24,479 bases of DNA. Source: Smithellaceae bacterium (GTDB lineage: Bacteria > Desulfobacterota > Syntrophia > Syntrophales > Smithellaceae). A program made the position numbers and the translations under genes. The DNA is taken from the NCBI GenBank assembly GCA_028704195.1, contig JAQVLL010000002.1:1-24479 (forward strand), in the 5' to 3' direction. Below, piece by piece: positions 3,846 through 22,315 of the stretch (its first letter is position 1; each line of letters opens with the position of its first letter). The notes below the pieces were generated by a model. That model had not been told where the DNA came from. It did no database searches and saw only the letters and a program-made list of their open reading frames with translations.

Positions 3846-4253
3846 TTATTTCACGGCTTTTTCTGCTGCCTGTCCAACGGTGTCAACCGTTGTTTCCGCA
3901 CCCTCTTTGACCGCTTCACCAGCTTTCTGCGCGGTGTCTTTTGCTGCGTCAACCGTTGTTTCTGCGGTTTCTTTTACAGTTTCACCGGCTCTCTGTACAG
4001 TATCTTTTGCTGCGTCAACTGTTGTTTCCGCGGTTTCTTTTACAGTTTCACCGGCTTTCTGTACAGTATCTTTTGCTGCGTCAACTGTTGTTTCCGCACC
4101 TTCTTTGACCGCTTCAACGCTTTGATCAATTTGTTCGCCTGCTTTTTCCATTGCCCCCTCTTCTTTCTGGCAGCCGGAGACGGCAACAACAAGGATAAGG
4201 GCAAAGATGATTGGAACAATTCCTTTCAGTAATGCAACAAGTGACTTTTTCAT
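3846..4253 (-). CDS. Lipoprotein with 22-aa tandem amphipathic repeats (LEA/YtxH/apolipoprotein-like), 135 aa
   Basis: Start moved to the ATG at 4253 (SD AAGGAGGT). Basic N-terminus, hydrophobic stretch and lipobox VSG-C28; repeats of AGETVKETAETTVDAAKDTVQK. Confidence 0.85.
   Translation of the reverse strand: MKKSLVALLKGIVPIIFALILVVAVSGCQKEEGAMEKAGEQIDQSVEAVKEGAETTVDAAKDTVQKAGETVKETAETTVDAAKDTVQRAGETVKETAETTVDAAKDTAQKAGEAVKEGAETTVDTVGQAAEKAVK
3883..4118. repeat. 66-bp coding tandem repeat, ~3.5 copies
   Basis: TTCACC(A/G)GCT recurs at 3915, 3981 and 4047, with a partial copy at 4113; exact 66-nt period. Confidence 0.9.
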
Positions 4254-4407
4254 GGAGACCTCCTTTTTGTACATGATATTTTTTGATTTAAAAAATATTC
4301 AGTCTGCCAACTGAACCCTCTCTACTCATTTGTGACTTCACCTGATATGTGGCCGAATGATAGATGAAGTTCTTCTGGATGAAGATGGGTAAATCTGTTA
4401 CCCTTAA

Positions 4408-7245: not shown

Positions 7246-7471
7246 GTGTTCCTTCATGTTAAAGCGACCGGACAGATTGCCTTTTGACCTGACGGCGCGC
7301 CTCCGGGTTCGTTGTTTTGTCGATGGGGCGGGCACGACCCGCGGTTACTTACAGCGGGGAACACGCGTTTATCTATATTTTCACTCAACCTGTCAGAAAG
7401 TCAAGAAAATATTGTATAAAAGCAAGCAGATGGTAATGATATGCTCTTGATATAAAGGTTTATCCGATAGC

Positions 7472-9235
7472 TCAACAGTCTCTTTTATGTGCCTTGACGA
7501 TCTGTGAACGGATCATGCGCGGAAGAATCAGATGATGTTGTGGACAGATGGAGCGCGGATTTTGATAAACGCAGTTGGCAAAGCCTACCAAATATTTGCG
7601 CAATTGATCATAACGCACGATCTCGTCGACGAAGCCCTTTTGGGCGCAATACAGCGGATTGGACGTGTCATCATAATGTTTAACCATTTCGTTCATCCTG
7701 TCGATCGTAGGTTGCAAAGACCGTCCGTCATCTTTTTCCTTGACCAGGCGTCGGGCGTATGTTGCCGCCGCCGCCGTTTCTCCGTGCATGACGTTGATCT
7801 CTGTCGCCGCCGTACCCAGCGAGAAGGCATTGTTGTTGTTGGCTACCGGTCCGCCCATGACATAATAGCCGGCCACGCTGCCTTTGCGCAGAACGATGAG
7901 CATCATTGCCAGCTGGGAATTTTCAATGGAATAAATCAGGGATTGTCCGAGGCCTAGCAGCTCTGCTTTTTCCGCATCATCACCAACGTCAATGCCACTG
8001 GTGTCCTGAATCCAGATGACAGGAATTTTATCTCGGGAACACAATGTGACAAATTCACTCATCTTGATCAAACCCTGGCGGTAGAGCCTGCCGCCCGTCC
8101 CTTCATAGGCTTTGGTGTACTCCGGATATTCCATGAAAGCTCCCTGCCGGTTGCCGATCACGCCTATCAGGTATCCATCGATCTTCACCAGGCCTGTATA
8201 GACTTCCGGGCCGAATCCGGGACAGAATTCCATGTGCTCGGAGCGGTCGACCAGTCTTGCCAGCACTTGCTCGAAATCATATACACTTTTTTTATCAACC
8301 GGAACAATCGAGGCAATTTCCGATGGCGGATATTTTGGCTGTGCAGGTTCGGCCACGCGGAAAAAGCGCGGCCTGAATGCGGGAAGATCGTCCATGTAAT
8401 CCCTGATGGCGTCGAGCACCTGTTTTTCTTCGTCAAAAACGGCACGGAAAAATCCGGTGACATCGTAATGAATTTTAACGCTGCCGGGCGGAACGGATTT
8501 AAAATGCCTGGTCGCGCTGATGATTTCCTCCGCCCGCGTTTCATTGTAGGTCCCTGCCGGATGGATGCCGCTGAGGATGCCGCCGCCACCCACAGCCATA
8601 TTCGCCTTCTTATGAGCAAGCAGAATCACCGGACTGACCGACTGGTAACCGCCGCCTGCAGGATTGGTGCCGTAGATACCGGCAATGACCGGGTTGCCCA
8701 TGATCTCCAGCTCTGCATGGCGATAGAAACAGGCCCCCTGACCCCGTTTTCCTGCATACACTTTTTCCTGTTCGGTGAGCTTGACGCCTGAACAGTTCAC
8801 CAGCCACACCAGCGGAATGTGCAGGAGTTTGGCGATGTCCGTGACCCGCAGGTTGTTGTCCGGCTGACCCGCGATCCACGCGCCCGCCATCCATTTGTTG
8901 TTGAAGCCGATGAGGACGCACCACTTGCCGCGGATGCGGGCCAGGCCGTCCACGACGCCGGTGCTTCCCGATTCCTCGTTCTCCGGATCAAAGATGCTGT
9001 GCAGCGGGCAGAAGGTCCCGGGATCCACCAGGTATTCGATGCGCTGCCAGACGCTCATCTCGCCGCGCTCGTTCAGTCTGGACAGTGGGACGCCTACGGT
9101 TTTGATACGCTCGACTTCGGCGTCGATTGCCTTCATGATTTCTTCGATCTTTGAGCAGTTTTCCCTCATGTTTTCGATTTCTATTTCGGAAAGCTGGCTT
9201 CCCAGCGGATCCATTTTTTCAAAATACTGCCTCAT
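7472..9235 (-). CDS. gcdA: Glutaconyl-CoA decarboxylase alpha-subunit-like carboxyltransferase (divergent)
   Basis: 587 aa; collinear with Acidaminococcus GcdA as recalled: GKWCVL, AGAW..GQ, VNCSGVK..EQEKVY, GIYGTNPAGGGY, QGLIKM, QDTSGIDVG..AEKAELLGLGQSLIYSI, GTAATEI.VM.GETAA. SD AGGAG. Confidence 0.82.
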   Translation of the reverse strand: MRQYFEKMDPLGSQLSEIEIENMRENCSKIEEIMKAIDAEVERIKTVGVPLSRLNERGEMSVWQRIEYLVDPGTFCPLHSIFDPENEESGSTGVVDGLARIRGKWCVLIGFNNKWMAGAWIAGQPDNNLRVTDIAKLLHIPLVWLVNCSGVKLTEQEKVYAGKRGQGACFYRHAELEIMGNPVIAGIYGTNPAGGGYQSVSPVILLAHKKANMAVGGGGILSGIHPAGTYNETRAEEIISATRHFKSVPPGSVKIHYDVTGFFRAVFDEEKQVLDAIRDYMDDLPAFRPRFFRVAEPAQPKYPPSEIASIVPVDKKSVYDFEQVLARLVDRSEHMEFCPGFGPEVYTGLVKIDGYLIGVIGNRQGAFMEYPEYTKAYEGTGGRLYRQGLIKMSEFVTLCSRDKIPVIWIQDTSGIDVGDDAEKAELLGLGQSLIYSIENSQLAMMLIVLRKGSVAGYYVMGGPVANNNNAFSLGTAATEINVMHGETAAAATYARRLVKEKDDGRSLQPTIDRMNEMVKHYDDTSNPLYCAQKGFVDEIVRYDQLRKYLVGFANCVYQNPRSICPQHHLILPRMIRSQIVKAHKRDC

Positions 9236-9255
9236 GGCTGACTCCTGTATCGGGG

Positions 9256-10413
9256 CTAAACCCGGTTTGGTGCAAATCCCATTGCCGCGTTGGCAACAAT
9301 CATGGTGTGCATGTTGGATGTTCCTTCCAGCGTTTCGAACTGCTTGGAGTCCCGCAGGAATCGCCCGCAGGGATATTCATCGGAATAGCCGAAGGAGCCG
9401 AACAGCTTCATGCATTCATTGGCGTCGTGAACAACAACTTTCGCACCGTATAGTTTGGACATGGAGGTTTCCATCACGTTGGGCATTCCTTTGTCCTTGA
9501 GCCAGGCAGCCTTGTACACCAGCGCCGCCAGGGTTTCGTGTCCGACTTTCATTTCCGCAACCTGCTGCTGAATCAGCTGGTACCTGCCGATCTGCTTTCC
9601 GAACTGACAGCGCTCCGTAGCGTATTTTGCAGAGGCGTCCAGGATCGCGCCGGAAAGGCCCAGTGCGCCCGCGGAGCAGCCCAGGCGTGTGGAATTGAGT
9701 TGCGTCATGCACATCTGGAACCCGCGGTTGAGCTTTCCAAGAAGAAGGCTTTTGGGTACTTTTACATCTTCAAAGGTGATCTCTGCCGTGTCGGCTGCCC
9801 ACAGTCCGACTTTATCGTTGATTTTTTTTCGGGTAACGCCGGGAAGGCTGTAGTCCATGATAAAGCAACTGATACCGTTGGCGCCCGCGTCCTTATCGGT
9901 TTTAACATACAGCAGACCGTGATTGGTGACGGTTCCGTTGGTGATCCACATTTTGTTTCCGTTGAGCAGATAGTAATCGCCTTTATCATCAGCGTGGCAT
10001 TTCATTGAAGCGACGTCGGAGCCGATATCCGGTTCGGTCATGGCAAAGCTGCCGATGTATTCACCGCTGACGAATTTTGGAATATAATGCTGCTTCTGCT
10101 CTTGGGTGCCGAATTTCTGGATGGTCAGCGCAGGGCCCCAGCACTGCATGTTGAAGGCCATCCGCCAAGAGGTGTGCACTTTGGCGATTTGTTCAATAGC
10201 CAGAGCACCTTCCAGGAAGCCCATGCCATTGCCGCCGTACTTTTCGTCGATGGAGAAGCCGAAAAAACCCAGCTCGGCCATCTTGTCGAATATTTCTTTG
10301 CGCCAGAAATGATTTTTCTCATCTTCCTCTACATGCGGCGCGATCTCTTTTTCGGCAAAACTTCTGGCCGTGTCCTGAATCATCGTTTGTTCTTCTGTTA
10401 ATGCGAAATTCAT
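9256..10413 (-). CDS. Acyl-CoA dehydrogenase resembling non-decarboxylating glutaryl-CoA dehydrogenase (385 aa)
   Basis: Start moved to the ATG at 10413 (SD GGAGGA). FAMTEPDIGSD, NGNKMWITN and catalytic E363 (TLEGTSN). R84/N88 match the carboxylate-binding R87/N91 of the Desulfococcus enzyme; C-terminal NR; 20 bp upstream of gcdA. Confidence 0.8.
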   Translation of the reverse strand: MNFALTEEQTMIQDTARSFAEKEIAPHVEEDEKNHFWRKEIFDKMAELGFFGFSIDEKYGGNGMGFLEGALAIEQIAKVHTSWRMAFNMQCWGPALTIQKFGTQEQKQHYIPKFVSGEYIGSFAMTEPDIGSDVASMKCHADDKGDYYLLNGNKMWITNGTVTNHGLLYVKTDKDAGANGISCFIMDYSLPGVTRKKINDKVGLWAADTAEITFEDVKVPKSLLLGKLNRGFQMCMTQLNSTRLGCSAGALGLSGAILDASAKYATERCQFGKQIGRYQLIQQQVAEMKVGHETLAALVYKAAWLKDKGMPNVMETSMSKLYGAKVVVHDANECMKLFGSFGYSDEYPCGRFLRDSKQFETLEGTSNMHTMIVANAAMGFAPNRV

Positions 10414-10560
10414 ATTGTTTATCCTCCGAGGCTTTTTCCTGTTGCCATTGCGAGCAGACCCTTGGTCTGCGCTGCAATCCCTAAAGCATAGGGAAGGGTT
10501 TGAATAACCTGACCACCTGAAGGTGGTGCGAGACCACGCGACCATTCCCTGTGATAAATG
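10414..10560 (-). other. Highly structured intergenic RNA segment (4 stems, alternative pairings)
   Basis: Perfect stems at 10454-10470 (GCAGACC/GGTCTGC), 10478-10494 (TCCCTA/TAGGGA) and 10512-10527 (ACCACCT/AGGTGGT); long-range pairing 10541-10550 with 10490-10499. Confidence 0.55.
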
Positions 10561-11829
10561 TTATTTTCGTTCAATAATTACGCATATTCCCTGACCGCCG
10601 CCGCCACAGATCGTTTCCAGTCCGAAACGCTTATCTGACCGCACCATTTCGTTGATCAGTGTGGTAAGGCGCATCGTGCCGGTTGCTCCGATGGGATGGC
10701 CGAGTGAAATGCCCGATCCGTTTACATTGACCTTCGCATCCATCTGCTCGTCGGAAATCCCCGAGAGTCTTGCATCCGCAAGGCACTGGACGGCAAAGGC
10801 TTCCTGTACTTCAATCAGGTCCATCTGATCGATGGTTGCGTTGATCTTTTTCAGCGCTTTTTCCACGGCCCCCGGAACCGCGGGGTAGGTAATAGTGGGG
10901 TCTGTGGCCGCTACAGCGCAGGAGCGAAAATAGGCCAGGGGTTTTACGCCCAGCTCTTTCGCTTTCTTTTCAGAAGCCATCACAACCACGGCCGCGCCGT
11001 CATTTTCCGACGATGAATTGCCCGCGGTGCAGATACCATCCTGATAAACAGGTTTCAGTTTGGCCAGGCGCTCCAGCGTGGTTTCCCGGCGCGGTCCCTC
11101 ATCTGTTTTCAGGTAAACCGTTTCACCGCTTTTTTTGTCAAGGCCTATGGGCACAGGAACAATTTCATCGGCGAACTTGCCAGCGTCCTGTGCCGCGATT
11201 GCTCTCTTATGGCTGCGCAGCGCCCAGCGGTCAGCTTCTTCGCGGGTGATTTTTTCTCTTTTGGCCGCCGTTTCAGCCCAGGTCATCATCGAGCTCAGTT
11301 CCCCGTAGCGCGCGATGGGCTGAGACATGACCCGCCCGCGCTGGATACGGTCATAAAAAGGAATGCCCCACATTGCCAGCGCTCCGTGGCCGCGGGGCAT
11401 GAACCCGTATTTTTCATGGTTTTTCCCGCCCAGTCCCCACTTGATGTCTCCGGGAATGTATAATTCTCCCTGGCTCATGGATTCCATGCCGCCGGCAATG
11501 ACCAGTTCGGCATTGCCTGTCTGGATTTTCATGGCTCCGTAAAAGATGGTATCCAGCCCCGAGCAGCAGCGTCTGTCCAGCATGATCCCCGGGATGGTGT
11601 CCGGCCAGCCTGCATCAAGCACGGCCATACGCGCTCCGTTGGCGCACTCGCCGTTCTGGTAGGCCGATCCCATGATGACATCATCAATGATGGCCGGATC
11701 GATCCCCGTTTTTTTTATTGCCGCCTGTAAAACAAGGCTTGCCAGCCGGTAAACAGGCACATCCCTGAACGCACCTCCGTATGCGCCGATGGGCGTACGC
11801 GCGCAACTGATAAAAACCACATTTTCCAT
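10561..11829 (-). CDS. Acetyl-CoA C-acyltransferase (thiolase)
   Basis: Start moved to the ATG at 11829 (SD GAGGTG). Catalytic Cys (DRRCCSG), NSSSENDGAA, QEAFA, NVNGSGISLGHPIGATG and C-terminal ICGGGGQG. Confidence 0.95.
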   Translation of the reverse strand: MENVVFISCARTPIGAYGGAFRDVPVYRLASLVLQAAIKKTGIDPAIIDDVIMGSAYQNGECANGARMAVLDAGWPDTIPGIMLDRRCCSGLDTIFYGAMKIQTGNAELVIAGGMESMSQGELYIPGDIKWGLGGKNHEKYGFMPRGHGALAMWGIPFYDRIQRGRVMSQPIARYGELSSMMTWAETAAKREKITREEADRWALRSHKRAIAAQDAGKFADEIVPVPIGLDKKSGETVYLKTDEGPRRETTLERLAKLKPVYQDGICTAGNSSSENDGAAVVVMASEKKAKELGVKPLAYFRSCAVAATDPTITYPAVPGAVEKALKKINATIDQMDLIEVQEAFAVQCLADARLSGISDEQMDAKVNVNGSGISLGHPIGATGTMRLTTLINEMVRSDKRFGLETICGGGGQGICVIIERK

Positions 11830-11881
11830 AAACCGCACCTCGATAGATGAATTGACGTTTTCTTATGTATCTTTCCTTTGT

Positions 11882-13549
11882 TCAGGCCACCGTTTCCACT
11901 CGCGGATCTGTTTGATAGACGGGGCTGTACATCTTTGATTTAATGAATCCCGGTAAATCTGATGGTTCTTTCATCGCAGTGAGTCGCCTGGCAAATGCCA
12001 GCCTGGCAACGGTTGTCGCAATATGGAGGGACACTTCTCGAATGCGTGACAGTGACGGAAAAATCCTGCCCAGTTCCAAATCCTCTGTGGTTGCTTTCTT
12101 GGCCACGCACGCGGCAGCCACGGAAAACATTTCATCCGTTACCCGGGTTGATTCTGAAGCCAGAACGCCCAGCCCGACACCGGGGAATATATAGACATTG
12201 TTTGCCTGGCCCGGAATAAAATTCTGACCATTGATAACGACCGGCGGAAAGGGACTTCCGCTTGCAAATACCGCGTGTCCGTTTGTGTGGCTGTATGCGT
12301 CCTGTGCTGAGCATTCCGATCGTGAGGTCGGATTGGAAAGTGCAAACACAATGGGACGTTCATTCCATTTGGCCATGGCCTGTAAAATCTCCGGGGTGAA
12401 TGCCCCGGACTGCCCTGATGCTCCGATGATGGCGGTTGGTTTGATGGCATTGACCGCGGAGAAAAGATCGCGATGGAAGGGAAAGTCGTGGGCAAAGCGG
12501 CTTTTGTGCTGCACAAGGTCCGTTCGGCTCTCGACAACCAGTCCTTGGGAATCAACAAACCAGCAGCGGCCACGGGCTTCATTTTCAGAAAGACCCTGAT
12601 TAATCATGGAGGTGACTACCAGATTTCCGATCCCCAGGGCAGCCTCTCCCGCTCCCAGAAACACCAGTTTTTGGTCGGTCATTTTACCGCCGGTCATGCA
12701 CAGTGCCGAATACAACCCGGCCAGTGCCACACCGGCTGTACCCTGGATGTCGTCGTCGAACATGCAGTAGCGATCCCGGTAACGGTCAAGCAGCCGGAAG
12801 GCGTTTTTGTTGCCGAAGTCTTCGAACTGAATCATGACATGAGGGAATGTTTTGCTGGCTGCCTCCATAAACTCATCCAGGAGAGCATCGTATTCCTCCC
12901 CCTGCAGGCGTTCCTCCGGCAGACCGATATATTCCGGGTCACTCCAAAGCCCTTTGTTGCCGGTGCCGACATCGATCATGACCGGCAGGCATGCGTTGGG
13001 CGCGATGCCCGCACAGGCCGTGTAAAGTGACAGCTTGCCCACGGGAATTCCCATACCGTTGGAACCAAGATCGCCAAGTCCCAGGATGCGTTCGCCGTCT
13101 GTTACCACAAGGATGCGAACTTCCTTGTGTGGCCAGTTGCGCAGAATGCTCCTGATGTGGCCGCGATGATGCTTTGTAATGAAGATTCCACGGGGGCGAC
13201 GGAAAACTTTGCTGTATTCCTGGCAGGCCAGTCCAACGGTCGGCGTATAGATAATAGGGCTCAGTTCTTCGAGGTGCTCGATGAGTGTTTTGTAGAACAA
13301 CTGCTCATTGCGATCCTGCAGACCGATCAGATAAAGGTATTTTTCAAGGTTGCTGGGTTTGCGGCGGACATTGTTCATGATGTGCTGAACCTGCTGCTGC
13401 TGAGAAGAAATAATCGGCGGCAGCAATCCTTCGAGTCCCAGTGCTTTACGCTCAGCAGCGGTGAAGGCGGTGCCTTTATTCAAGGCGGGATCATGCAGTA
13501 AATCGATCCCCAGGGGAAGTTCCTCAAGACCTGATGGATGTTTTGCCAT
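11882..13549 (-). CDS. Malic enzyme, large (MaeA/eukaryote-like) type, possibly NADP-preferring
   Basis: 555 aa; NKGTAFT..ER..LGLEGLLPP, IYTPTVGLAC, VTDGERILGLGDLG, IQFEDF, DDIQGT, GAGEAA, ALSNPT..SEC and GQANNVYIFPG. Confidence 0.95.
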   Translation of the reverse strand: MAKHPSGLEELPLGIDLLHDPALNKGTAFTAAERKALGLEGLLPPIISSQQQQVQHIMNNVRRKPSNLEKYLYLIGLQDRNEQLFYKTLIEHLEELSPIIYTPTVGLACQEYSKVFRRPRGIFITKHHRGHIRSILRNWPHKEVRILVVTDGERILGLGDLGSNGMGIPVGKLSLYTACAGIAPNACLPVMIDVGTGNKGLWSDPEYIGLPEERLQGEEYDALLDEFMEAASKTFPHVMIQFEDFGNKNAFRLLDRYRDRYCMFDDDIQGTAGVALAGLYSALCMTGGKMTDQKLVFLGAGEAALGIGNLVVTSMINQGLSENEARGRCWFVDSQGLVVESRTDLVQHKSRFAHDFPFHRDLFSAVNAIKPTAIIGASGQSGAFTPEILQAMAKWNERPIVFALSNPTSRSECSAQDAYSHTNGHAVFASGSPFPPVVINGQNFIPGQANNVYIFPGVGLGVLASESTRVTDEMFSVAAACVAKKATTEDLELGRIFPSLSRIREVSLHIATTVARLAFARRLTAMKEPSDLPGFIKSKMYSPVYQTDPRVETVA

Positions 13550-13596
13550 ACGGATCTTATCTCCATTCCCTAAGATACAGTCTGTTCGATGTTGTC

Positions 13597-13625
13597 ATTA
13601 TATTTTGTTTGCAGATATTTTTCCA
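13597..13625 (-). promoter_or_regulatory. Candidate internal promoter upstream of malic enzyme (sigma54-like TGGAAAA-N4-CTGCA overlapping sigma70-like TGGAAA-N17-TATAAT)
   Basis: GG/GC at exact -24/-12 spacing (13625-13610) and TATAAT at 13602-13597, in a 180-bp intergenic gap. Confidence 0.4.
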
Positions 13626-13729
13626 TTGTTTAAAGGAATATATCCGCTCCTTTGGATTATTTATCGTTTCAATCCCGGTTATGATTGCCTTTTTCCTTCT
13701 ACCTGTCCGGCCTTTCCTGTTGTAAAAGA

Positions 13730-15565
13730 TCAACTGACGATCAATGCTTCTTCCGGACAGGTGAGGACAGAATCTTCTTCGCTCTTGATGAGAGCGGCCA
13801 GCACAGGTGTTCCCGGCAGGATGTTGTTGAGGTAATACCTGGCTGATGCAATCTTTCCCTGGTAGTAATTGTAGTCCGCCTCACCTTCTGTTAACGTATC
13901 AAGCTTAGAGGCGGCAATCCTGGCCTGATCCATCAGGCACATCGACACGTACACTTTTGCGAATACAAACAAGGCCCGGATGGCATACAGCGGAATCAAC
14001 CGGCGTTTGTTTTTCAGATCGGCGTACCAGGAATCATAGGTCGCTCTTACATCAGCCGCTGCCTGATATCCTTTGTCCAACTGACTCATCTCTTTTTCAA
14101 AATTCGGCATATTCATGTTCGCGTCGATGAAGGACCTGATGTCCTGCATCCAGGCAGTAAAAGTAGTTCCTTCTTTCATGCGCATTTTGCGTCCGATCAG
14201 GTCATTGGCGTGAATAAACGAAGTGCCTTCCCAAATGGAAAGAATTTTGGAATCCCGCAGGTACTGTTCAACGGGATATTCCTGCGTGTATCCCACACCT
14301 CCCAGTACCTGAATCGCCTGAGTGATCACACCGACACTTGCCTCACTTCCGTAACACTTAACCAGCGGTGTCAGAATTTCCGCAAACGAACCGCATCTTT
14401 TCGCTTTTTCTTTATCGGGGGAATTATTCTCAATGTCCAGGTAGTAAAATCCCTTAAAGATCATGGCGCGGATGCCTTCAACATGGGCTTTCATATCCAA
14501 AAGCATCCGGCGAATGTCTTCATGCCTGATAATGGGCACGCGCTCGGCTCCTTTAACACCAAACGGTCTTCCCTGAATCCGTTCTGTTGCGTACTGCGAA
14601 GCAAAATAGCAGGCGGCGGCTCCCTGGGTATTGGCGTTATGGCCCGTTCCGATGCGCGACTCGTTCATCATATGGAACATCATGGCCAGTCCCTGGGAAA
14701 ATCCATTTGCGTCAGGCGCGGGTCCAAGCATAATGCCCCGGCAATTGTCTTCATCACCAAAATTTAAAAGAGTTGTTGCCTGGGCGTGCAACCCCATTTT
14801 ATGTTCAATCCCCACGGTAGTGACATCATTGGAGTCCCCCATAGATCCGTCATCATTCACCCAGTATTTGGGTACTATATAAAGACCGATTCCAGGAGAA
14901 CCCATGGCTCCTCCTTCAGGTCTTGCCAGCACCAGGTGGATGGTGTTTGCACACGTGCCCTGATCGCCGGCGGTGATGAACATCTTGGTTCCCTTGATTT
15001 TCCAAATGCGGGGATCATGGGTGGGGTAGGAACGGGTAATAATATCAACTATATCGGAGCCGAAATTGGGTTCGGTCAGGCACATCGTTCCCTGCCAGTA
15101 TCCTCCCAGCATTTTTGAGACAAACATGTCCTGATCCTTCTTTGTGCCGAAACGAAAAATCAAATTCGCCGCTCCCGAAGTAAGCTTTACACAGGAAGTC
15201 AGTGCCGGGCAGGCTGCCGTGTTGATTTCAGCATTAGCCTTGTACAGCATCAGCGGCATCCCTGTTTCTACCTTAATGCACTCACTTGATGATCCCCAGC
15301 CGTTTTGCTGCAGATATTGGTATGCCTCCTTGAAGCCGGGCGCCGGTGTTACAACGCCTTTGTCAAATTTGACGCCGATCTTGTCGCCCGGTGCGTTGAT
15401 GGGATGAACAATTTCCCTGGATACTTTGTAACCTTCATTGAGCAGCATATCGACATCGTCAAGCGTGAAATTGCCCTTGAATCGATCGCACGACAAGACT
15501 TCCTCTGTCGGAAGCCATTCTTTTAAAATAAACTTTAAATCCCTGATGTCATATTTAAATTCCAT
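13730..15565 (-). CDS. Long-type (~600 aa, FadE5/DmdC-like) acyl-CoA dehydrogenase
   Basis: 611 aa; GTMCLTEPNFGSD, IKGTKMFIT.G, IHLVLAR, IEHKMG, MFHMMNESR, LTPLVK, QAIQVLGGVGY..EYPVEQY.RD and catalytic IWEGT. Confidence 0.93.
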   Translation of the reverse strand: MEFKYDIRDLKFILKEWLPTEEVLSCDRFKGNFTLDDVDMLLNEGYKVSREIVHPINAPGDKIGVKFDKGVVTPAPGFKEAYQYLQQNGWGSSSECIKVETGMPLMLYKANAEINTAACPALTSCVKLTSGAANLIFRFGTKKDQDMFVSKMLGGYWQGTMCLTEPNFGSDIVDIITRSYPTHDPRIWKIKGTKMFITAGDQGTCANTIHLVLARPEGGAMGSPGIGLYIVPKYWVNDDGSMGDSNDVTTVGIEHKMGLHAQATTLLNFGDEDNCRGIMLGPAPDANGFSQGLAMMFHMMNESRIGTGHNANTQGAAACYFASQYATERIQGRPFGVKGAERVPIIRHEDIRRMLLDMKAHVEGIRAMIFKGFYYLDIENNSPDKEKAKRCGSFAEILTPLVKCYGSEASVGVITQAIQVLGGVGYTQEYPVEQYLRDSKILSIWEGTSFIHANDLIGRKMRMKEGTTFTAWMQDIRSFIDANMNMPNFEKEMSQLDKGYQAAADVRATYDSWYADLKNKRRLIPLYAIRALFVFAKVYVSMCLMDQARIAASKLDTLTEGEADYNYYQGKIASARYYLNNILPGTPVLAALIKSEEDSVLTCPEEALIVS

Positions 15566-15615
15566 GACGTGTTTCCTTATTGATTCTGCCTCAGGTCCAT
15601 GTAATCCGTTCAGGC

Positions 15616-17700
15616 TTATTTTGAGTAGAAGCCCTTTCCTTCCCTGGCAAGTCTCTCGAGGAGCGGTGAGGGGGTCCAGTATTCGGCGCCGACGAGATCC
15701 CTGTACTTCAGAATCGCATCGTAAACCTTCTTCAGGCCAACCGTATCGGCATAGAACATCGGGCCGCCAAGATAAACGGGGAATCCATAACCGTTGAGCC
15801 AGACGACGTCAATGTCGAGTGGACGAGCCGCGATTCCTTCTTCCAGAATTTTCGCGCCTTCATTGATCATAGAGTAAATTGCCCGTTCGATGATTTCCTG
15901 ATCGGTGATGGTGCGGCGGGGGATCCCGACTTCCTGAGAATGCCTGATGATGAGTTCTTCAATCATCGGATCGGGCGTTGCATTGCGCTTTTCGTCGTAT
16001 TGATAGAAGCCGGAACACGTCTTCTGTCCGAAACGCCCCATCTCGCAAATCTTGTCGATGATGTTGCATGCTTTTTCCCGTGGGGTCAACGAGTCGAATT
16101 TGGCCTTACGGTTTCGCCAGCCGATATCCAGGCCGGCCATGTCGCCCATGGCATAAGGGCCCATGGGGAACCCGAAGTTGTAGATGGTCTTGTCGATCTG
16201 CCATGGTAGTGCGCCTTCCTCAAGCATGAAACCGCATTCTCGGGTGCGCCTGGCCAGCATGCGGTTGCCGACAAATCCGTCGCAGACGCCGACCAGAACC
16301 GGCACTTTGCCGATGGCCCTGCCCACTTTCATGGCGGTGGCGTAAACGTCGGGCGACGTTTTTGCGCCGCGCACGTTCTCCAGAAGACGCATCACATTGG
16401 CGGGGCTGAAAAAATGCGTACCCATGACGTCCTGCGGCCTTTTGGTAGATGCTGCGATTTCGTCGATATTCAGATAGGATGTATTGGAAGCAAGAATGGC
16501 TCCGGGCTTGCAGATGGCGTCAAGTTTGCCAAAGACTTCTTTCTTTACAGATATGTCTTCAAAAACCGCCTCGATGACCAGGTCAACATTCTTCAGGTCG
16601 TCATAGGAAAGGGTCGGTGTAATCAGCGATAAGCGCTTATCCATAATTTCCTGCTTGATTTTGCCTTTGGCAACGGTGCTCGCGTAGTTTTTCCTGATGA
16701 CGGCAAGACCCTTCTCCAGCAATTCCTGTTTGACTTCCAGAAGGACAACGGGGATCCCGGCATTGGCAAAGCACATGGCAATGCCGCCGCCCATCGTACC
16801 CGCGCCCAGCACGCCCACGGACCTGACTTCCCGTGTCGGTTGATCATCGGGCAGCCCCGGTATGCGGACAACCTCACGTTCGGAGAAGAAAACATGACGC
16901 AGCGCTCTGGACTGGTCTGATGCCTGCAATTCCAGAAATATGGCACGCTCCCGTTTCATGCCTTCGGCAAAGGGGAGCTCGGTGGCGATTTTGACAGCTT
17001 CGATGCATTTGTACGGGGCGATGGCGCCACGGAATTTGCGGGCATTGGCTTTGGCAAAATCGTCAAAAACAGAAGGGGAATCGACTCTGGCCTGTCGTTC
17101 GCTCACTTTGCGGACAGGACGTTTTTCGTCAATCACTCTTTTAGCAAAGGTAAGCGCCTCTGCTTTCAGGTCACCTTCAATGATTGCATCGAGAATGCCC
17201 ATTTCTTTGGCCCGGGTCGCCGGTACAGGAACACCGGAGGTGATCATTTCCAGCGCTGCCTGCACTCCGGCCACACGGGGCAGCCGCTGCGTTCCACCCG
17301 CGCCGGGCAGAAGTCCCAGCTTCACTTCGGGCAGGCCCACCCTTGCGGATGACACGGCTATCCGGAAATGACAGCCCAGGGGAATTTCAAGGCCTCCGCC
17401 CAGTGCCGTTCCGTGAATTGCAGCGATGACCGGTTTGGGAGAATCCTCGATGAACTGGCAGACATCCGGCAAATAAGGTTCCATGGCCGGCTTGCCGAAC
17501 TCCCGGATATCGGCGCCTGCAATAAAAGTGCGTCCCTCGCACAGGATGATCATGGCCGAAACACTGTCGTTAGCAATGCCTTTTTCCAGACCTGCCTTGA
17601 TTCCGGCACGAACGGCCTGGGACAGGGCGTTTACCGGCGGGTTGTTAACGGTAATGATCCCTATGTTTCCTTCTTTTGAAAAACGTACAGCTTCTGACAT
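15616..17700 (-). CDS. Bifunctional enoyl-CoA hydratase/3-hydroxyacyl-CoA dehydrogenase (PimF/FadB-like)
   Basis: 694 aa; crotonase domain (NPPVNAL, FIAGADI, HGTALGGGLE, LPEVKLGLLPGAGGTQRLPR) plus HACD (GAGTMGGGIA, EAVFE, ASNTS, HFFSPANVM, GFVGNRM). Collinear with Rhodopseudomonas PimF as recalled. SD AAGGAG. Confidence 0.95.
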   Translation of the reverse strand: MSEAVRFSKEGNIGIITVNNPPVNALSQAVRAGIKAGLEKGIANDSVSAMIILCEGRTFIAGADIREFGKPAMEPYLPDVCQFIEDSPKPVIAAIHGTALGGGLEIPLGCHFRIAVSSARVGLPEVKLGLLPGAGGTQRLPRVAGVQAALEMITSGVPVPATRAKEMGILDAIIEGDLKAEALTFAKRVIDEKRPVRKVSERQARVDSPSVFDDFAKANARKFRGAIAPYKCIEAVKIATELPFAEGMKRERAIFLELQASDQSRALRHVFFSEREVVRIPGLPDDQPTREVRSVGVLGAGTMGGGIAMCFANAGIPVVLLEVKQELLEKGLAVIRKNYASTVAKGKIKQEIMDKRLSLITPTLSYDDLKNVDLVIEAVFEDISVKKEVFGKLDAICKPGAILASNTSYLNIDEIAASTKRPQDVMGTHFFSPANVMRLLENVRGAKTSPDVYATAMKVGRAIGKVPVLVGVCDGFVGNRMLARRTRECGFMLEEGALPWQIDKTIYNFGFPMGPYAMGDMAGLDIGWRNRKAKFDSLTPREKACNIIDKICEMGRFGQKTCSGFYQYDEKRNATPDPMIEELIIRHSQEVGIPRRTITDQEIIERAIYSMINEGAKILEEGIAARPLDIDVVWLNGYGFPVYLGGPMFYADTVGLKKVYDAILKYRDLVGAEYWTPSPLLERLAREGKGFYSK

Positions 17701-17756
17701 GCTTAGGGTCTCCTTTTTTTATGAATGTAAACGGGGCTATTTTACTCCATTTACTT

Positions 17757-17772
17757 AGCAAATACCATACCA
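17757..17772 (-). promoter_or_regulatory. sigma54 (-24/-12) promoter of the catabolic operon
   Basis: Minus strand TGGTATG-GTAT-TTGCT matches TGGCACG-N4-TTGCW with exact GG..GC spacing, 56 nt upstream of the start, next to a divergent bEBP. Confidence 0.8.
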
Positions 17773-17813
17773 GTGAATGTTCATGGATTTATGCATTACC
17801 GAACAGGCGTCTG

Positions 17814-17864
17814 GGACTGTCCTGCCAATGATCTTTATATGTGCAACACCGGGATGGACCATCC
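17814..17864. promoter_or_regulatory. Candidate upstream activator sequences (two GGACYRTCC palindromes)
   Basis: GGACTGTCC (17814-17822) and GGACCATCC (17856-17864, within the perfect GGATGG-A-CCATCC); 42 bp apart, at about -72 and -114. Confidence 0.5.
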
Positions 17865-17890
17865 ATGCGAATCCGTTTTAGCTGACATAT

Positions 17891-17920
17891 TTGACAAAAA
17901 TGTATTTATTGTATACAATA
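17891..17920 (+). promoter_or_regulatory. sigma70 promoter of the activator (TTGACA-N17-TACAAT) overlapped by the palindrome TATTGTATACAATA
   Basis: -35 at 17891-17896, -10 at 17914-17919; perfect 14-bp palindrome at 17907-17920. Confidence 0.75.
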
Positions 17921-17965
17921 TAATTTATAGTGTATATTAAATAAACAATATGGATTGTATTCAGT

Positions 17966-19030
17966 ATGACGGGCATGAGCCATCAGCGCAAATATAAAAA
18001 AAATGAAACCGTTGGTCCGGCTGTTGCAAGGAAGGATCCCGCAGGGGAGAAGCTGGGAGCGGCATTTGACGAACTGATCGGCGCCAATGTTGCTTTTCGG
18101 GATGCCCTGATGACCGCCCAGCGGGCCGCTCAATCGGACATATCGGTTCTCATTATCGGGGAAAGCGGTACGGGGAAAGAAATTCTGGCGCGGGCCATCC
18201 ACCAGAGAAGCAGCCGCAGGGACAAGCCGCTGGTCGATGTCAATTGCGCAGCCATTCCGGACAGCCTGATCGAAAGCGAGCTTTTTGGATATGAACGGGG
18301 CGCCTTTACCGGAGCGCGCGCCGAAGGCCGAAAAGGCTATTTCGATGAGGCGCATGAAGGGACGATTCTGCTCGATGAGATCGGCGATTCCTCTTTATCC
18401 GTCCAGTCCAAATTATTGCGTGTGCTAGAATCCGGTTCCTTCAAAAGAGTCGGCGGGATGAAAAACATCAGGGTGAACGTGCGGATTATTTCTTCAACCA
18501 ACCAGGATCTTGCCGGTTTGATTGAAGAGAAAAAATTTCGTGAAGACCTTTTCTTTCGTTTGAATCCCTTCACGATTCTGCTCCCGCCGCTTCGTGAACG
18601 CATTGAAGACATCCCGCTTCTGGTTGATTATTTTTTGAAAAGCCACGATTTCGCAAGAAAGCAAAAATACAAATTTTCTCCTGATGCTTTCAGGGTCCTT
18701 CAAGGATATCACTGGCCGGGAAATGTACGGGAACTCAAAGGGGTTGTAAGCTATGCTGTGAATATGGCTCAATCGCCTTTGATTGATCCGTCGTCCCTGC
18801 CGAAATTTCTTTTTTCCGGACCGGACACGCCGCAAAATCATGGAAGGATAGTTCCTGGCGGTGTGGCCGCATCGTATAACCTTGTCGAATCGATTCGCGA
18901 TCTGGAACGTAAACTGATCACAGAAGCGTTAACCATTGCCCCAAACAAGTCGGCGGCCATTAAAATGCTGGGGATCAGCAGGAGGACCTTTTACCTGAAA
19001 CTGAAAGAATACGGATTGGATAAACAGTAA
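17966..19030 (+). CDS. sigma54-dependent activator (bEBP) with AAA+ and Fis-type HTH but no sensory domain
   Basis: 354 aa; GESGTGKE, VNCAAIP..LIESELFG, intact GAFTGA, LLDEIGD, FREDLFFRLN, WPGNVREL and C-terminal HTH; only ~30 aa precede the AAA+ domain. Confidence 0.93.
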   Translation: MTGMSHQRKYKKNETVGPAVARKDPAGEKLGAAFDELIGANVAFRDALMTAQRAAQSDISVLIIGESGTGKEILARAIHQRSSRRDKPLVDVNCAAIPDSLIESELFGYERGAFTGARAEGRKGYFDEAHEGTILLDEIGDSSLSVQSKLLRVLESGSFKRVGGMKNIRVNVRIISSTNQDLAGLIEEKKFREDLFFRLNPFTILLPPLRERIEDIPLLVDYFLKSHDFARKQKYKFSPDAFRVLQGYHWPGNVRELKGVVSYAVNMAQSPLIDPSSLPKFLFSGPDTPQNHGRIVPGGVAASYNLVESIRDLERKLITEALTIAPNKSAAIKMLGISRRTFYLKLKEYGLDKQ

Positions 19031-19037
19031 TCAAAAC

Positions 19038-19053
19038 TGGAATGACTTATGCA
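19038..19053 (+). promoter_or_regulatory. Candidate sigma54 promoter for the lyase-like gene
   Basis: TGGAATG-ACTT-ATGCA with exact -24/-12 spacing, 7 nt after the activator stop. Confidence 0.5.
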
Positions 19054-19082
19054 AAAAATTACATTATTTGACGTGGGACCCT

Positions 19083-20090
19083 ATGACCATGAATGAAAAT
19101 CGGGCATCGGCAGGCAAATCTTTCAGGAAGAATGATGCGCAGGTTACCATCGTGGAAGTATCTCCGCGGGACGGTCTGCCGGAGATCTGCAAAGGTTTAT
19201 CTACAACAGATAAAATAAAATATATCAATAAATTGTCCGAAACAGGTCTCAGGAAAATCGAGTGTGCATCTTTCATGCACCCCCGTCTTTTGCCCCTGGG
19301 CTACGATGCAGAAAAACTGATCACGGGCATTTCCAAAAAACAGGGTGTGACCTATGTGGGGCTTGTTCCGAATGAAATCGGTTGCCGCCGCGCGATGATA
19401 ACGCAAATCGATGAAATCCTGATTCTTATTTCGGCAAGCGACACATTCAACAAACTGAATATCGGCAGGACGCTGAAAGAAAGCCTCAATAAAATGCTCC
19501 CCTCCATACTGGATACGGCGGTAAAAAACTCACGCAGTGTCCGCGCTTACATGATGACCGCCTTCGGCTGCCCTTACACGGGTAAAATCAGCCCAGAAGA
19601 CATCGTGCAGTTGGTGTTAAAACTCAGTTACATGGGAGCCTCCGAAGTTGTGCTGGTCGATTCCACCGGAATGGCAAATCCCAGGTCGGTTCAAGCGATG
19701 CTCCGCGTCCTGCTGGACTTGCAGCTTGACATCAATCTGGCTGTGCATTTTCACAACACGAGAGGAGCGGCGATTGCCAACTGCATGGCCGCCTATGATG
19801 CGGGTATCCGCGTTTTTGACACGTCACTGGGCGGGATGAGTGCGACACCTTACGGGGTAAGCGAAATGGACGTCGGCAGCTGGAATGTGCCGACGGAAGA
19901 TCTGGTCCATCTGTTTGAAGAAATGGGCATTCCGACGGGAGTTGATCTTGAAAAGCTTCTGGATTGTGTCCGTATGGCAGAGCAAATGGCCAGAATGCGC
20001 CTTCCCGGTCATCTGCTGCGGGCAGGCAAGTCATCTCAGATCGTCGGGGTACCGAAGCATCTGCAGCGGCATCCCATCATGGATCAATAA
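19083..20090 (+). CDS. HMG-CoA lyase-fold (DRE-TIM) protein with altered active site
   Basis: IVEVSPRDG, KIE, FGCPYTG, HFHNTRG and NVPTEDL. Canonical RDGLQ reads RDGLP and GLGGCPY reads GMSATPY. Start is ambiguous (19068 TTG, 19083 or 19089 ATG). Confidence 0.85.
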   Translation: MTMNENRASAGKSFRKNDAQVTIVEVSPRDGLPEICKGLSTTDKIKYINKLSETGLRKIECASFMHPRLLPLGYDAEKLITGISKKQGVTYVGLVPNEIGCRRAMITQIDEILILISASDTFNKLNIGRTLKESLNKMLPSILDTAVKNSRSVRAYMMTAFGCPYTGKISPEDIVQLVLKLSYMGASEVVLVDSTGMANPRSVQAMLRVLLDLQLDINLAVHFHNTRGAAIANCMAAYDAGIRVFDTSLGGMSATPYGVSEMDVGSWNVPTEDLVHLFEEMGIPTGVDLEKLLDCVRMAEQMARMRLPGHLLRAGKSSQIVGVPKHLQRHPIMDQ

Positions 20091-20118
20091 ATCGATGCGG
20101 TTCTAAAACCGCGTCGAT
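20091..20118. terminator. Terminator hairpin between convergent genes
   Basis: ATCGATGCGGTT-CTAA-AACCGCGTCGAT, a 12-bp stem with one G-U pair; T-rich tail on the minus strand. Confidence 0.7.
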
Positions 20119-20158
20119 GATGATATTCAAAATGAAAGATGTTTATTTTGTATACACC

Positions 20159-22315
20159 CTACAGTTTCAATCCTTTTTTGATTCTCTCGAGCATGGCCTT
20201 TTCATCGTCGTCGTATGGTCCGTCCACCAGGCAGAGTCTGCGGGCAATGCTGAGGGCCTCAAATCGGTCGTCCTTGTCCTTGATCAGGACCGATAAGGTA
20301 TTGAACGCTTTATCCTCGTCAGCCTGAAGGATAGCGACCTGCTCATGCATAATTTTTTTAAATTGTGGTGCACTCAGTTTCTTGAGGACCTTGTGAGTTC
20401 TGGCGATTTCGTTGCCGATTTCAAAATGCCGTCTTTTCACGTGCTGACCGATTTTGGCAATGGCCACGTACACTCGTATTAAACCGGCGGCCAAACCTCC
20501 TTCTTCCATCGCCAGCAGGCGCTTGTCGTAATCAGCGCGCTCATGTTCCGGCAGCTCTCTGGACGGTTCTTGCGGTGCAGGCGGGAATAAACGCCTCAGC
20601 CAATCACTGCCGTAAATATTTTTAAACAGCTGCTCCTGGCTTAAGTCACGATAGTCGCGATAAATATCAAGAACATTTTCGACATATTCGGAAATAGATT
20701 TCTCCATGGCGTTAAAGGGGTTGTCTGTCGCCGCGGGCTTTCGGTTCTGCCGCGTGATCGATGCGATATTTTTAAGCGGTCGCATCAAGGGATTGATGTC
20801 GGCAAACAGGTAACGCTGGAGGCGGAGCGGATGCAGATAACGGATGACTTCCGCGGAAAGCTCCGTGGTCCAGAATTTTACCCACGGACGCGCGAGCAGT
20901 TGATAGACGTTATCATTGGCTTCGGATATTTTTGCCACCACACTGAAATCTGTTTCGTCTGTTGTTCCGTCATCATAGGCGGCTATGTCCGCAAATGTCC
21001 GCGGCTCAAAATGAGTGGTGAATTTGCCGCTCATGACATCGCCTTCGATCACCATTTCGTAAAGGCCGGGGCTCAAGAAATCAATCATGTCAAAATTGCC
21101 AATGATCTCGTTGTGTTCTTTTTTGGCTACGGATCCCGCAACAAAAATTCCCAGATGGCCGATTTTTTCATGGACAATGTAGATGATGACCTGCCCATGC
21201 CTTTTGATGTCTTCCACGGAGGAATAAACGCGGGGAATCCAGTTGAGCGCCTGCTGGGTAGGGGTGATGTTGTCACCCTGCGATGCGAAAACAATAATCG
21301 GACTTTCGATATTCTTCAGGCTGATCTTCTGACCTTCCTGCAGCTCAAGCTGTCCCTGTTCCAGTTTGTTGCCGACAAAAAGGTTTCGGACGATATAGTG
21401 GATTTCGTCGGTGTTCATCATGAAGAAACCGCCCCACCATTTTTCAAAGTTGAGATATCGATCCTCCTCCTTATCCACCTGCGAATAAACATTGTACTGC
21501 TTGGTCCAGAATGTGTTGGACGGATTGAGCAGCTCCATGTTCAGAACCAGGTTGGCGCCGTCAAAAACTCCGTTGCCAAGATCACTGAAAAAGGAATTGA
21601 CCCAGACGCCGCCTAACAGACCGCCTTTGTAGCGCATGGGATTGACTCCTTCGACTCCGCTCCAGTAAGACAAGGGCGCGCCGTTCAGCACCAATGGTCC
21701 CGCGACATCGGGTCGGTCCGCACAAGCCAGTGCCGCTGCCCAACCCGCCTGGCAGTTACCTATAATGGCCGGGGCGTCTGCTTCAGGGTGTAATTCGACC
21801 ACTTTCTCAATGAACGTTTCGATGGCTTCAATCACATCCGCCATGGTCTGTCCGGGGATAGGGTCCGTATAAAAGAGGATAAAATAAACCGGGTGGCCGT
21901 GTTCGAGCGCCATGCCGATTTCCGAATCGCGCTTGGACCCGCCGATCCCGGGACCGTGGCCGGCGCGGGGATCAATAATCACAATGGGCCGTTTTGGCCT
22001 TGTTACCCGTTCCCTGATCTTGTCCCGGCGATCGTCGACAACCTTTTGGATGTCGGCGCGGCGGCGGTCGGAAATTTTGACCAGTGCGTAATTGGCGGGT
22101 CGTTCAAAATTCTTGGCGTTAAGGATCATTTCGTAATTATACGTCAGCACCGGCGGCTGGCCGCTGCGGAGATGTTTGATGTAATTGTTGCCTCTTTTGC
22201 GTAAAATATCCGTGAAAATGATGGACCGCTGCAGGGAATCCACCATGTATTCGCCCAGATGCTTTTGCCAGTCGGACCACTGTGCGGTTTGATCATCACC
22301 GGTTTGTGTATCCAT
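20159..22315 (-). CDS. DUF3141-family PHA-synthase-like alpha/beta hydrolase
   Basis: 718 aa; DPRAGHGPGIGG, Cys nucleophile box GNCQAGW, GAPLSYWSG, NPSNTFWTKQY, FEKWWGG, ASQGDNITP and GHLGIFV (Cys-Asp-His triad). SD AAGGAG. Confidence 0.85.
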   Translation of the reverse strand: MDTQTGDDQTAQWSDWQKHLGEYMVDSLQRSIIFTDILRKRGNNYIKHLRSGQPPVLTYNYEMILNAKNFERPANYALVKISDRRRADIQKVVDDRRDKIRERVTRPKRPIVIIDPRAGHGPGIGGSKRDSEIGMALEHGHPVYFILFYTDPIPGQTMADVIEAIETFIEKVVELHPEADAPAIIGNCQAGWAAALACADRPDVAGPLVLNGAPLSYWSGVEGVNPMRYKGGLLGGVWVNSFFSDLGNGVFDGANLVLNMELLNPSNTFWTKQYNVYSQVDKEEDRYLNFEKWWGGFFMMNTDEIHYIVRNLFVGNKLEQGQLELQEGQKISLKNIESPIIVFASQGDNITPTQQALNWIPRVYSSVEDIKRHGQVIIYIVHEKIGHLGIFVAGSVAKKEHNEIIGNFDMIDFLSPGLYEMVIEGDVMSGKFTTHFEPRTFADIAAYDDGTTDETDFSVVAKISEANDNVYQLLARPWVKFWTTELSAEVIRYLHPLRLQRYLFADINPLMRPLKNIASITRQNRKPAATDNPFNAMEKSISEYVENVLDIYRDYRDLSQEQLFKNIYGSDWLRRLFPPAPQEPSRELPEHERADYDKRLLAMEEGGLAAGLIRVYVAIAKIGQHVKRRHFEIGNEIARTHKVLKKLSAPQFKKIMHEQVAILQADEDKAFNTLSVLIKDKDDRFEALSIARRLCLVDGPYDDDEKAMLERIKKGLKL

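Follow-up and report, generated by a model that had tools for sequence, protein, structure and literature searches.

The window analysed here, a stretch of 24,479 bp from contig JAQVLL010000002.1 of a Smithellaceae bacterium (order Syntrophales; GenBank assembly GCA_028704195.1), contains a gene for a sigma-54 enhancer-binding protein, followed on the same strand by a gene for a homologue of 3-hydroxy-3-methylglutaryl-CoA (HMG-CoA) lyase, which we call HMGL-T. The start codon of HMGL-T, the ATG at 19083, lies 52 nt past the activator stop codon, and an operon for acyl-CoA metabolism is oriented divergently from the pair. Coordinates of these genes, of their promoters and of three copies of a candidate binding motif are listed in Table 1. 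Genome-wide scans were performed on the source assembly, which comprises 2.49 Mb and is 85% complete.

Table 1. Genes, promoters and candidate binding sites of the activator–lyase locus (positions in the window).
Feature	Position	Strand	Basis
Sigma-54 enhancer-binding protein (activator), 354 aa	17966..19030	+	Pfam domains, PDB sequence matches, motif positions, long PAS-bearing orthologues, alignment A2
HMG-CoA-lyase-subfamily protein HMGL-T, 335 aa	19083..20090	+	PF00682, NF004283, alignments, invariant columns
Sigma-54 (-24/-12) promoter of the lyase gene, TGGAATGACTTATGCA	19038..19053	+	Conserved position and sequence
Sigma-54 promoter of the divergent acyl-CoA beta-oxidation operon, TGGTATGGTATTTGCT	17757..17772	-	Conserved
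Sigma70-type promoter of the activator gene, TTGACA-17-TACAAT	17891..17919	+	11/12 consensus positions
Candidate activator-binding site 1, 17-bp perfect palindrome TGTATTTATTGTATACA	17901..17917	.	Exact motif match
Candidate binding site 2, TGTATATTAAATAAACA	17931..17947	.	Site scans, alignment A2; non-coding remnant of PAS V-Y-L-I-N codons
Candidate binding site 3, TGTATACAAAATAAACA on minus strand	20140..20156	.	50 nt past the lyase stop codon
Divergent operon, putative target	7472..17700	-	Pfam and NCBIfam matches

The activator as a PAS-deletion form

The activator is composed of Sigma54_activat (PF00158, residues 37-204, E 1.4e-66), AAA_lid_14 (residues 210-289) and HTH_8 (residues 310-349, E 1.3e-9) domains. 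Walker A (GESGTGKE), GAFTGA and Walker B (LLDEIG) motifs start at residues 65, 112 and 135, respectively, and sequence matches in the PDB include NtrC1, ZraR and PspF. The protein thus has the AAA+ core with GAFTGA and both Walker motifs and the C-terminal, Fis-type helix-turn-helix (HTH) expected of a bacterial enhancer-binding protein, and a fragment of rpoN is present on contig C56 of the source assembly. An N-terminal regulatory domain (sensor or receiver) is absent: no domain was found by Pfam in the N-terminus, and the AAA+ module is preceded by 36 residues only. This agrees with an earlier note on the locus, made from the sequence alone, which described a sensor-less activator with intact GAFTGA, Walker A/B and HTH. 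Also present, as reported in the same note, are a TAA stop codon in frame at 17942-17944 and the promoter, which ends 46 nt ahead of the ATG.

Comparison with the 120 closest homologues separates about 60 short activators from about 55 long ones. Among the closest orthologues (59-81% identical), about half keep an N-terminal PAS domain, with the same lyase gene downstream. The family is therefore not natively sensor-less in the manner of PspF or HrpRS, since 55 of the 117 closest homologues have an N-terminal PAS-like domain. As an illustration, activators of genomes G111, G050 and G081 are 425-454 aa long, with an N-terminal extension of 100-125 aa which cannot be removed by assuming a later start codon. 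The N-terminal domain is conserved among the long forms (alignment A1), and its model (pLDDT 75) gave only PAS domains as top Foldseek matches in the PDB. Pfam returned nothing at E < 0.01 on the N-termini of the long orthologues; the assignment to PAS is based on the fold search, coupled with faint PAS matches on record for the long form P0146.

Alignment of short (window, L032) and long (L041, L042) activator loci at the DNA level (alignment A2) shows that they differ by a single clean gap, about 240 bp long, between two conserved 17-bp TGTAT-N7-A(A/T)ACA elements, which correspond to sites 1 and 2. Site 2 of the long forms belongs to the reading frame and specifies a PAS strand, VY(L/Q)(L/I/V)N, whereas in the short forms it is non-coding; translated in the old frame, the copy in the window gives VY*IN. 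Judged from these comparisons, the activator belongs to a PAS-AAA+-HTH family and has lost PAS by a natural deletion; the short form is the derived one. The locus can be considered a natural experiment in the loss of a sensor domain, in which a site formerly made of PAS codons survives the deletion as plain DNA.

The deletion seems to have occurred more than once. Sites 1 and 2 are 30 bp apart in the genus of the window and 156 bp apart in family f17 (loci L037 and L038), and this difference in spacing argues that the f17 deletion was independent. In a quick tree, supported branches force at least five changes between short and long states, a pattern for which an exchange of alleles between lineages could be an alternative source. 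Short activators are maintained and not decaying, as GAFTGA is kept in 60 of 61 and Walker B in all 61.

In long activator genes, copies of the motif within the PAS frame (L034 at 11691 and 11862, L035 at 11495, L041 at 1198) encode V-Y-x-x-N with a fixed codon choice (GTA, TAy, nnn, nnA, AAC). The same stretch doubles there as PAS codons and as a candidate DNA site. In addition, a protein labelled as Synergistaceae (P0229) is 68% identical to the activator over AAA+ and HTH and carries a REC domain in place of PAS, a possible swap of the sensor domain on the same activator core.

The lyase homologue HMGL-T

HMGL-T matches PF00682 (E 4e-34) and NCBIfam NF004283 (score 275.8, cut-off 246), the latter being a subfamily and not an equivalog model. 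It was aligned with Bacillus subtilis YngG (1ydo, E 4e-65), 6nds and human HMGCL (2cw6); identity to HMG-CoA lyases such as 1ydo and 2cw6 is 37-44% over the whole barrel. Following a published list of critical HMG-CoA lyase residues (PMC6941031), HMGL-T retains R41, D42, E72, Y167, D204, H233, H235 and N275 (reference numbering). In its own numbering, the metal ligands D30, H222, H224 and N268 of the DRE-TIM barrel and the catalytic R29, E60 and Y156 are all in place. The sole replaced catalytic residue with respect to 1ydo and 2cw6 is Cys266 of the GLGGCP motif, the position of which is taken by Thr255. The loop GLGGC(266)PY is rewritten to GGMSAT(255)PY (GGMSxTP as a motif), followed by a 4-residue insertion that ends in an invariant Trp-Asn.

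The retained residues R29, D30, E60, Y156, D193, H222, H224 and N268 are invariant in 120 HMGL-T homologues (63-100% identity), and so are S253, T255, P256, G265 and W267. In the earlier note, the protein was described as an HMG-CoA-lyase fold lacking catalytic residues; this holds for the cysteine, while the other eight catalytic or metal-binding residues are present and invariant. Divergence of this loop is common in the family: of 132 family representatives with a findable H-x-H motif, 25 have a loop without Cys, in several versions. The invariant metal and substrate site, combined with the invariant S253-x-T255, is consistent with an enzyme whose catalytic loop has changed and not with a decayed one, and from this conservation we infer that HMGL-T is catalytically active. 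Its candidate substrates, 3-hydroxyglutaryl-CoA, citryl-CoA and citramalyl-CoA, are guesses suggested by neighbouring genes only.

HMGL-T differs from HMG-CoA lyases also in its distribution. It forms a separate clade, tied to the sigma-54 activator and confined, among the genomes searched, to four genera of one order. A literature search on the activator–lyase pairing, on HMG-CoA lyase in Smithella or Syntrophus and on cleavage of 3-hydroxyglutaryl-CoA yielded nothing relevant. HMGL-T represents an uncharacterised subfamily with an invariant Ser-x-Thr loop, at present annotated as HMG-CoA lyase despite the missing catalytic cysteine.

Pairing of the two genes across genomes

Co-occurrence was assessed in 121 genomes of the order, as the earlier note had proposed. 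An HMGL homologue of some type was found in 71 of them, and the Thr variant in eight genomes belonging to four genera. The orthologous activator is adjacent to the Thr-variant gene in all eight (8/8), and the reverse search with the activator retrieved exactly the same eight genomes. All 22 canonical Cys-type HMGL loci have GGCP, and none of them (0/22) has the activator as a neighbour. The outcome is thus strictly positive, although the eight pair-bearing genomes are mutually related, and the co-occurrence is to be read as a pattern and not as a statistic. Adjacency is kept even in the f17 loci L037 and L038, where the two genes are arranged tail-to-tail. On these grounds, the activator and lyase genes are functionally coupled and constitute a strict module.

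The pairing does not depend on the loss of the sensor. Long forms P0146, P0167 and P0134, 75-81% identical to the window protein, have the Thr-variant lyase gene about 57-75 nt downstream. Because PAS-bearing orthologues have the identical lyase partner and layout, the pairing is not a compensation for the lost domain. Fusions of activator and lyase, which the earlier note had suggested looking for, were not found: none of the top 150 of 8597 family representatives (lengths 165-599 aa) is long enough.

Promoters and candidate binding sites

The -24/-12 promoter of the lyase gene is kept in L032, L033, L034, L035, L036, L041, L042 and L043 as TGGAA(T/C)Gnn(T/A)TATGC(A/T), and the element proposed as a sigma-54 promoter in the earlier note is therefore conserved across orthologous loci. 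The sigma-54 promoter of the divergent operon is kept in L032, L033, L034, L035, L041, L042 and L043, and can also be read by eye in L036 and L037. The two conserved promoters are thus based on 8-9 loci, which derive from four genera and three metagenome contigs. By itself, the pattern TGG-N9-TGC occurs in the window no more often than by chance (17 observed, 16.75 expected); what makes the lyase promoter significant is that orthologous loci keep it at the same position and with a similar sequence. Contigs of two public runs, X1 and X2, over 15600-22300 are of low depth and probably DNA, and carry no information on transcript ends or expression. In X1, labelled as metagenomic RNA-Seq, one contig starts at 19059, about the expected start of the lyase transcript, but at a depth of about 3, and no conclusion is drawn from it.

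Upstream of the activator gene, TTGACA of the sigma70-type promoter is invariant in alignment A2. Site 1 overlaps the spacer and the -10 element of this promoter, its columns are also invariant in A2, and each orthologous locus has a copy at the corresponding position. A copy of the motif positioned directly 3' of the lyase gene, as site 3 is in the window, was observed in L032 (4508), L033 (4931), L035 (9388), L036 (7717), L042 (10496) and L043 (2984). The three-place layout of TGTAT-N7-A(A/T)ACA recurs in L032-L038 and L041-L043, and is absent from the control loci L039 and L040. In the window, the three sites fall within 2.3 kb, compared to about 20 in the whole assembly (about 11 expected). 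The scan of the whole 85%-complete assembly disclosed no second cluster, no site beside a -24/-12 promoter and no further regulon members. Two GGA-N3-TCC palindromes at 17814-17864 were also considered as the activator enhancer and rejected, as they are not conserved in orthologous intergenic regions of the same genus and close relatives, in contrast to the TGTAT-N7-AWACA sites.

Proposed mode of action and alternative explanations

Combining these features, we favour, with moderate confidence, a local sigma-54 regulator-target module in which the lyase is a working enzyme and a target, and the activator, lacking PAS, probably needs no signal and regulates its own gene. The activator gene would be transcribed from the sigma70-type promoter, and its product would bind the three TGTAT-N7-A(A/T)ACA sites, two at or after the activator promoter and the third directly 3' of the lyase gene. 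In this way it would repress or limit its own sigma70-type promoter. The activator would further switch on two sigma-54 promoters, those of the divergent dicarboxyl/acyl-CoA beta-oxidation operon and of the HMGL-T gene, its core target; the latter promoter would probably be served by looping from the flanking sites. HMGL-T would act as an enzyme in which the Ser-x-Thr loop replaces the Cys loop. Finally, the deletion of about 240 bp between sites 1 and 2 removed the PAS core of a PAS-AAA+-HTH ancestor, leaving a short form that is probably restrained mainly by autoregulation.

Two parts of this proposal draw on known systems. N-terminally truncated laboratory forms of XylR, DmpR and NorR (delta-A or delta-GAF) are constitutively active. 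They resemble the window activator in being one-component sigma-54 activators reduced to AAA+ and HTH by removal of the sensor, and differ from it in that the truncation studied here occurred in nature, at least twice, and has been kept in many lineages. Regarding site 3, which from its conserved position is probably a downstream enhancer or a looping anchor, Belitsky and Sonenshein are reported to have described in 1999 a downstream activating sequence of B. subtilis rocG, a gene regulated by RocR. The two loci are alike in that the sigma-54 enhancer, putative in the window, would follow the 3' end of its target gene, with about 1-1.5 kb separating it from the promoter; they differ in that the role of site 3 is suggested by its conserved position only. 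If correct, the proposal makes the locus a compact sigma-54 module, kept strictly among syntrophic Syntrophales of the Smithella type, whose arrangement of promoters and enhancers can be read from the sequence.

Several observations weigh against it. Even with up to two mismatches allowed, a search in the activator gene gave no site in the 1 kb preceding the lyase promoter, so that activation of this promoter needs a DNA loop of about 1.1 kb or else a site that escapes the motif. Thr-based catalysis would need a different chemistry or another proton donor, and human HMG-CoA lyase is crippled by mutation of Cys266. The constitutive activity of the short form is argued by analogy, and some enhancer-binding proteins need their N-terminal domain for activity. 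The apparent repeated loss of PAS, with at least five changes of state, is easier to understand if sensing is supplied elsewhere.

An alternative, raised in the earlier note, is that the lyase-fold protein serves as a sensor in trans. In its general form, HMGL-T, active or not, would bind the AAA+ domain according to its acyl-CoA load and gate the activator in a feedback loop like that of PspA and PspF. Pathway enzymes that are controlled by an enhancer-binding-type regulator and in turn bind and gate it are known, namely DhaK/DhaL with DhaR in Escherichia coli and BtdS with RedR2 in Aromatoleum anaerobium (PMC10084136). The earlier note knew of no described system of this kind, which needs a qualification: these enzymes bind the N-terminal GAF/PAS region of the regulator (PMC10084136), which the window activator does not have, so the precedents count for gating in general and against it in this protein. 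Similarity to PspF-PspA and HrpR/S-HrpV is seen in an activator made of AAA+ and HTH only, in a sigma-54-dependent gene adjoining the activator gene, and in the overlap of the sigma70 promoter of the activator gene with its binding sites (candidate sites in the window). In contrast to these systems, the neighbour in the window is a TIM-barrel enzyme, and close orthologues of the activator keep PAS, which makes it a truncated sensor-bearing regulator. No homologue of PspA (PF04012) was detected in the source assembly, and no HrpV homologue was found either.

Gating would account for the reciprocal co-occurrence and adjacency in all eight pair-bearing genomes, including the persistence of the pair in tail-to-tail orientation, for the conserved sigma-54 promoter that the lyase gene has, as pspA does, and for the repeated dispensability of PAS. 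An ordinary target gene would be expected to show adjacency, a sigma-54 promoter and dispensability of PAS just as much, and these features do not discriminate in favour of a PspA-like loop. The identical pairing in PAS-bearing orthologues speaks against the lyase as a substitute for the sensor, and together with the invariant lyase site it leaves the step from a sensor-less activator to a sensor in trans unsupported. The full conservation of the active site and the lack of fusions in the representatives searched point the same way, and a complex prediction for activator and HMGL-T (score 0.00) neither supports nor opposes binding. We consider gating by HMGL-T improbable, and the same holds for a variant in which the Ser-x-Thr enzyme acts by its acyl-CoA load on the AAA+ core of both PAS-bearing and PAS-less activators. 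Redundancy of the two sensors would, in the case of a trigger enzyme, explain how PAS was deleted at least twice without loss of control over the regulon. Gating by HMGL-T would also be the first case of a trigger enzyme that controls an enhancer-binding protein without a sensor; no finding presented here requires it.

Control of the short activator could also come from elsewhere, by an unlinked anti-activator, by a small molecule at the AAA+ domain, as in FleQ, where c-di-GMP is bound by this domain, or by a separate repressor that uses TGTAT-N7-AWACA as operators. A palindrome over the spacer and -10 element of a sigma70 promoter is in a typical repressor position, and the lack of a site close to the lyase promoter is in line with this alternative. 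Moreover, a hybrid PAS histidine kinase is encoded in the window (4447-7335), and others are found near L042. Against this, the sites accompany the activator-lyase pair in every locus and form no other cluster in the genome, which is best explained by a local HTH protein; no extra regulator gene is conserved alongside the pair, and no PspA homologue was found in the genome, at 85% completeness. Control of this kind is thus judged unlikely. It is highly improbable that the short activator is a crippled remnant unable to activate, with its regulon silent or read from other promoters. Such an explanation would be compatible with the deletion of a domain and with the inactivity of some enhancer-binding proteins deprived of their N-terminal domain, but about 60 short orthologues (63-91% identity) keep GAFTGA, Walker A/B and HTH, and promoters and binding sites around the short activators are conserved. 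The regulator-target module, with HMGL-T as a working enzyme, remains the explanation that we prefer.

Divergent operon and neighbouring genes

The divergent operon encodes a FadB-like hydratase/dehydrogenase, a long acyl-CoA dehydrogenase (ACAD), malic enzyme, thiolase, a glutaryl-CoA-dehydrogenase-like ACAD and a GcdA-like carboxyltransferase. Related gene sets also face away from the activator gene in L034-L038 and L042. A -24/-12-like element, TGGAAAAATATCTGC (13611-13625, minus strand), is situated in a 180-bp gap ahead of the malic-enzyme gene, and a near-identical one, TGGAAAAGTATCTGCA, precedes the malic-enzyme gene of a relative (L042, around 6332, minus strand). The element in the window may be an internal sigma-54 promoter for the part of the operon comprising malic enzyme, thiolase, ACAD and GcdA.

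In L042 (112-7689) and in the P0134 contig, both with long activators, the divergent operon opens with a carboxyltransferase of the OadA/5S type (HMGL-like and PYC_OADA domains), followed by malic enzyme, thiolase, the glutaryl-CoA-dehydrogenase-like ACAD and the GcdA-like carboxyltransferase. The window has the FadB-like gene and the long ACAD instead. A gene set of the L042/P0134 type could represent a glutaconyl-CoA:pyruvate transcarboxylase with a malate/pyruvate cycle.

On the other side of the pair, a DUF3141 gene is convergent with the lyase gene in the window, in L032, L033 and L042, and in the P0167 and P0134 loci. In the window it extends over 20159-22315 (minus strand), and its 718-aa product is weakly similar to polyhydroxyalkanoate synthases. 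An open reading frame of 142 aa at 3846-4274 (minus strand) gave weak phasin/apolipoprotein-like matches.

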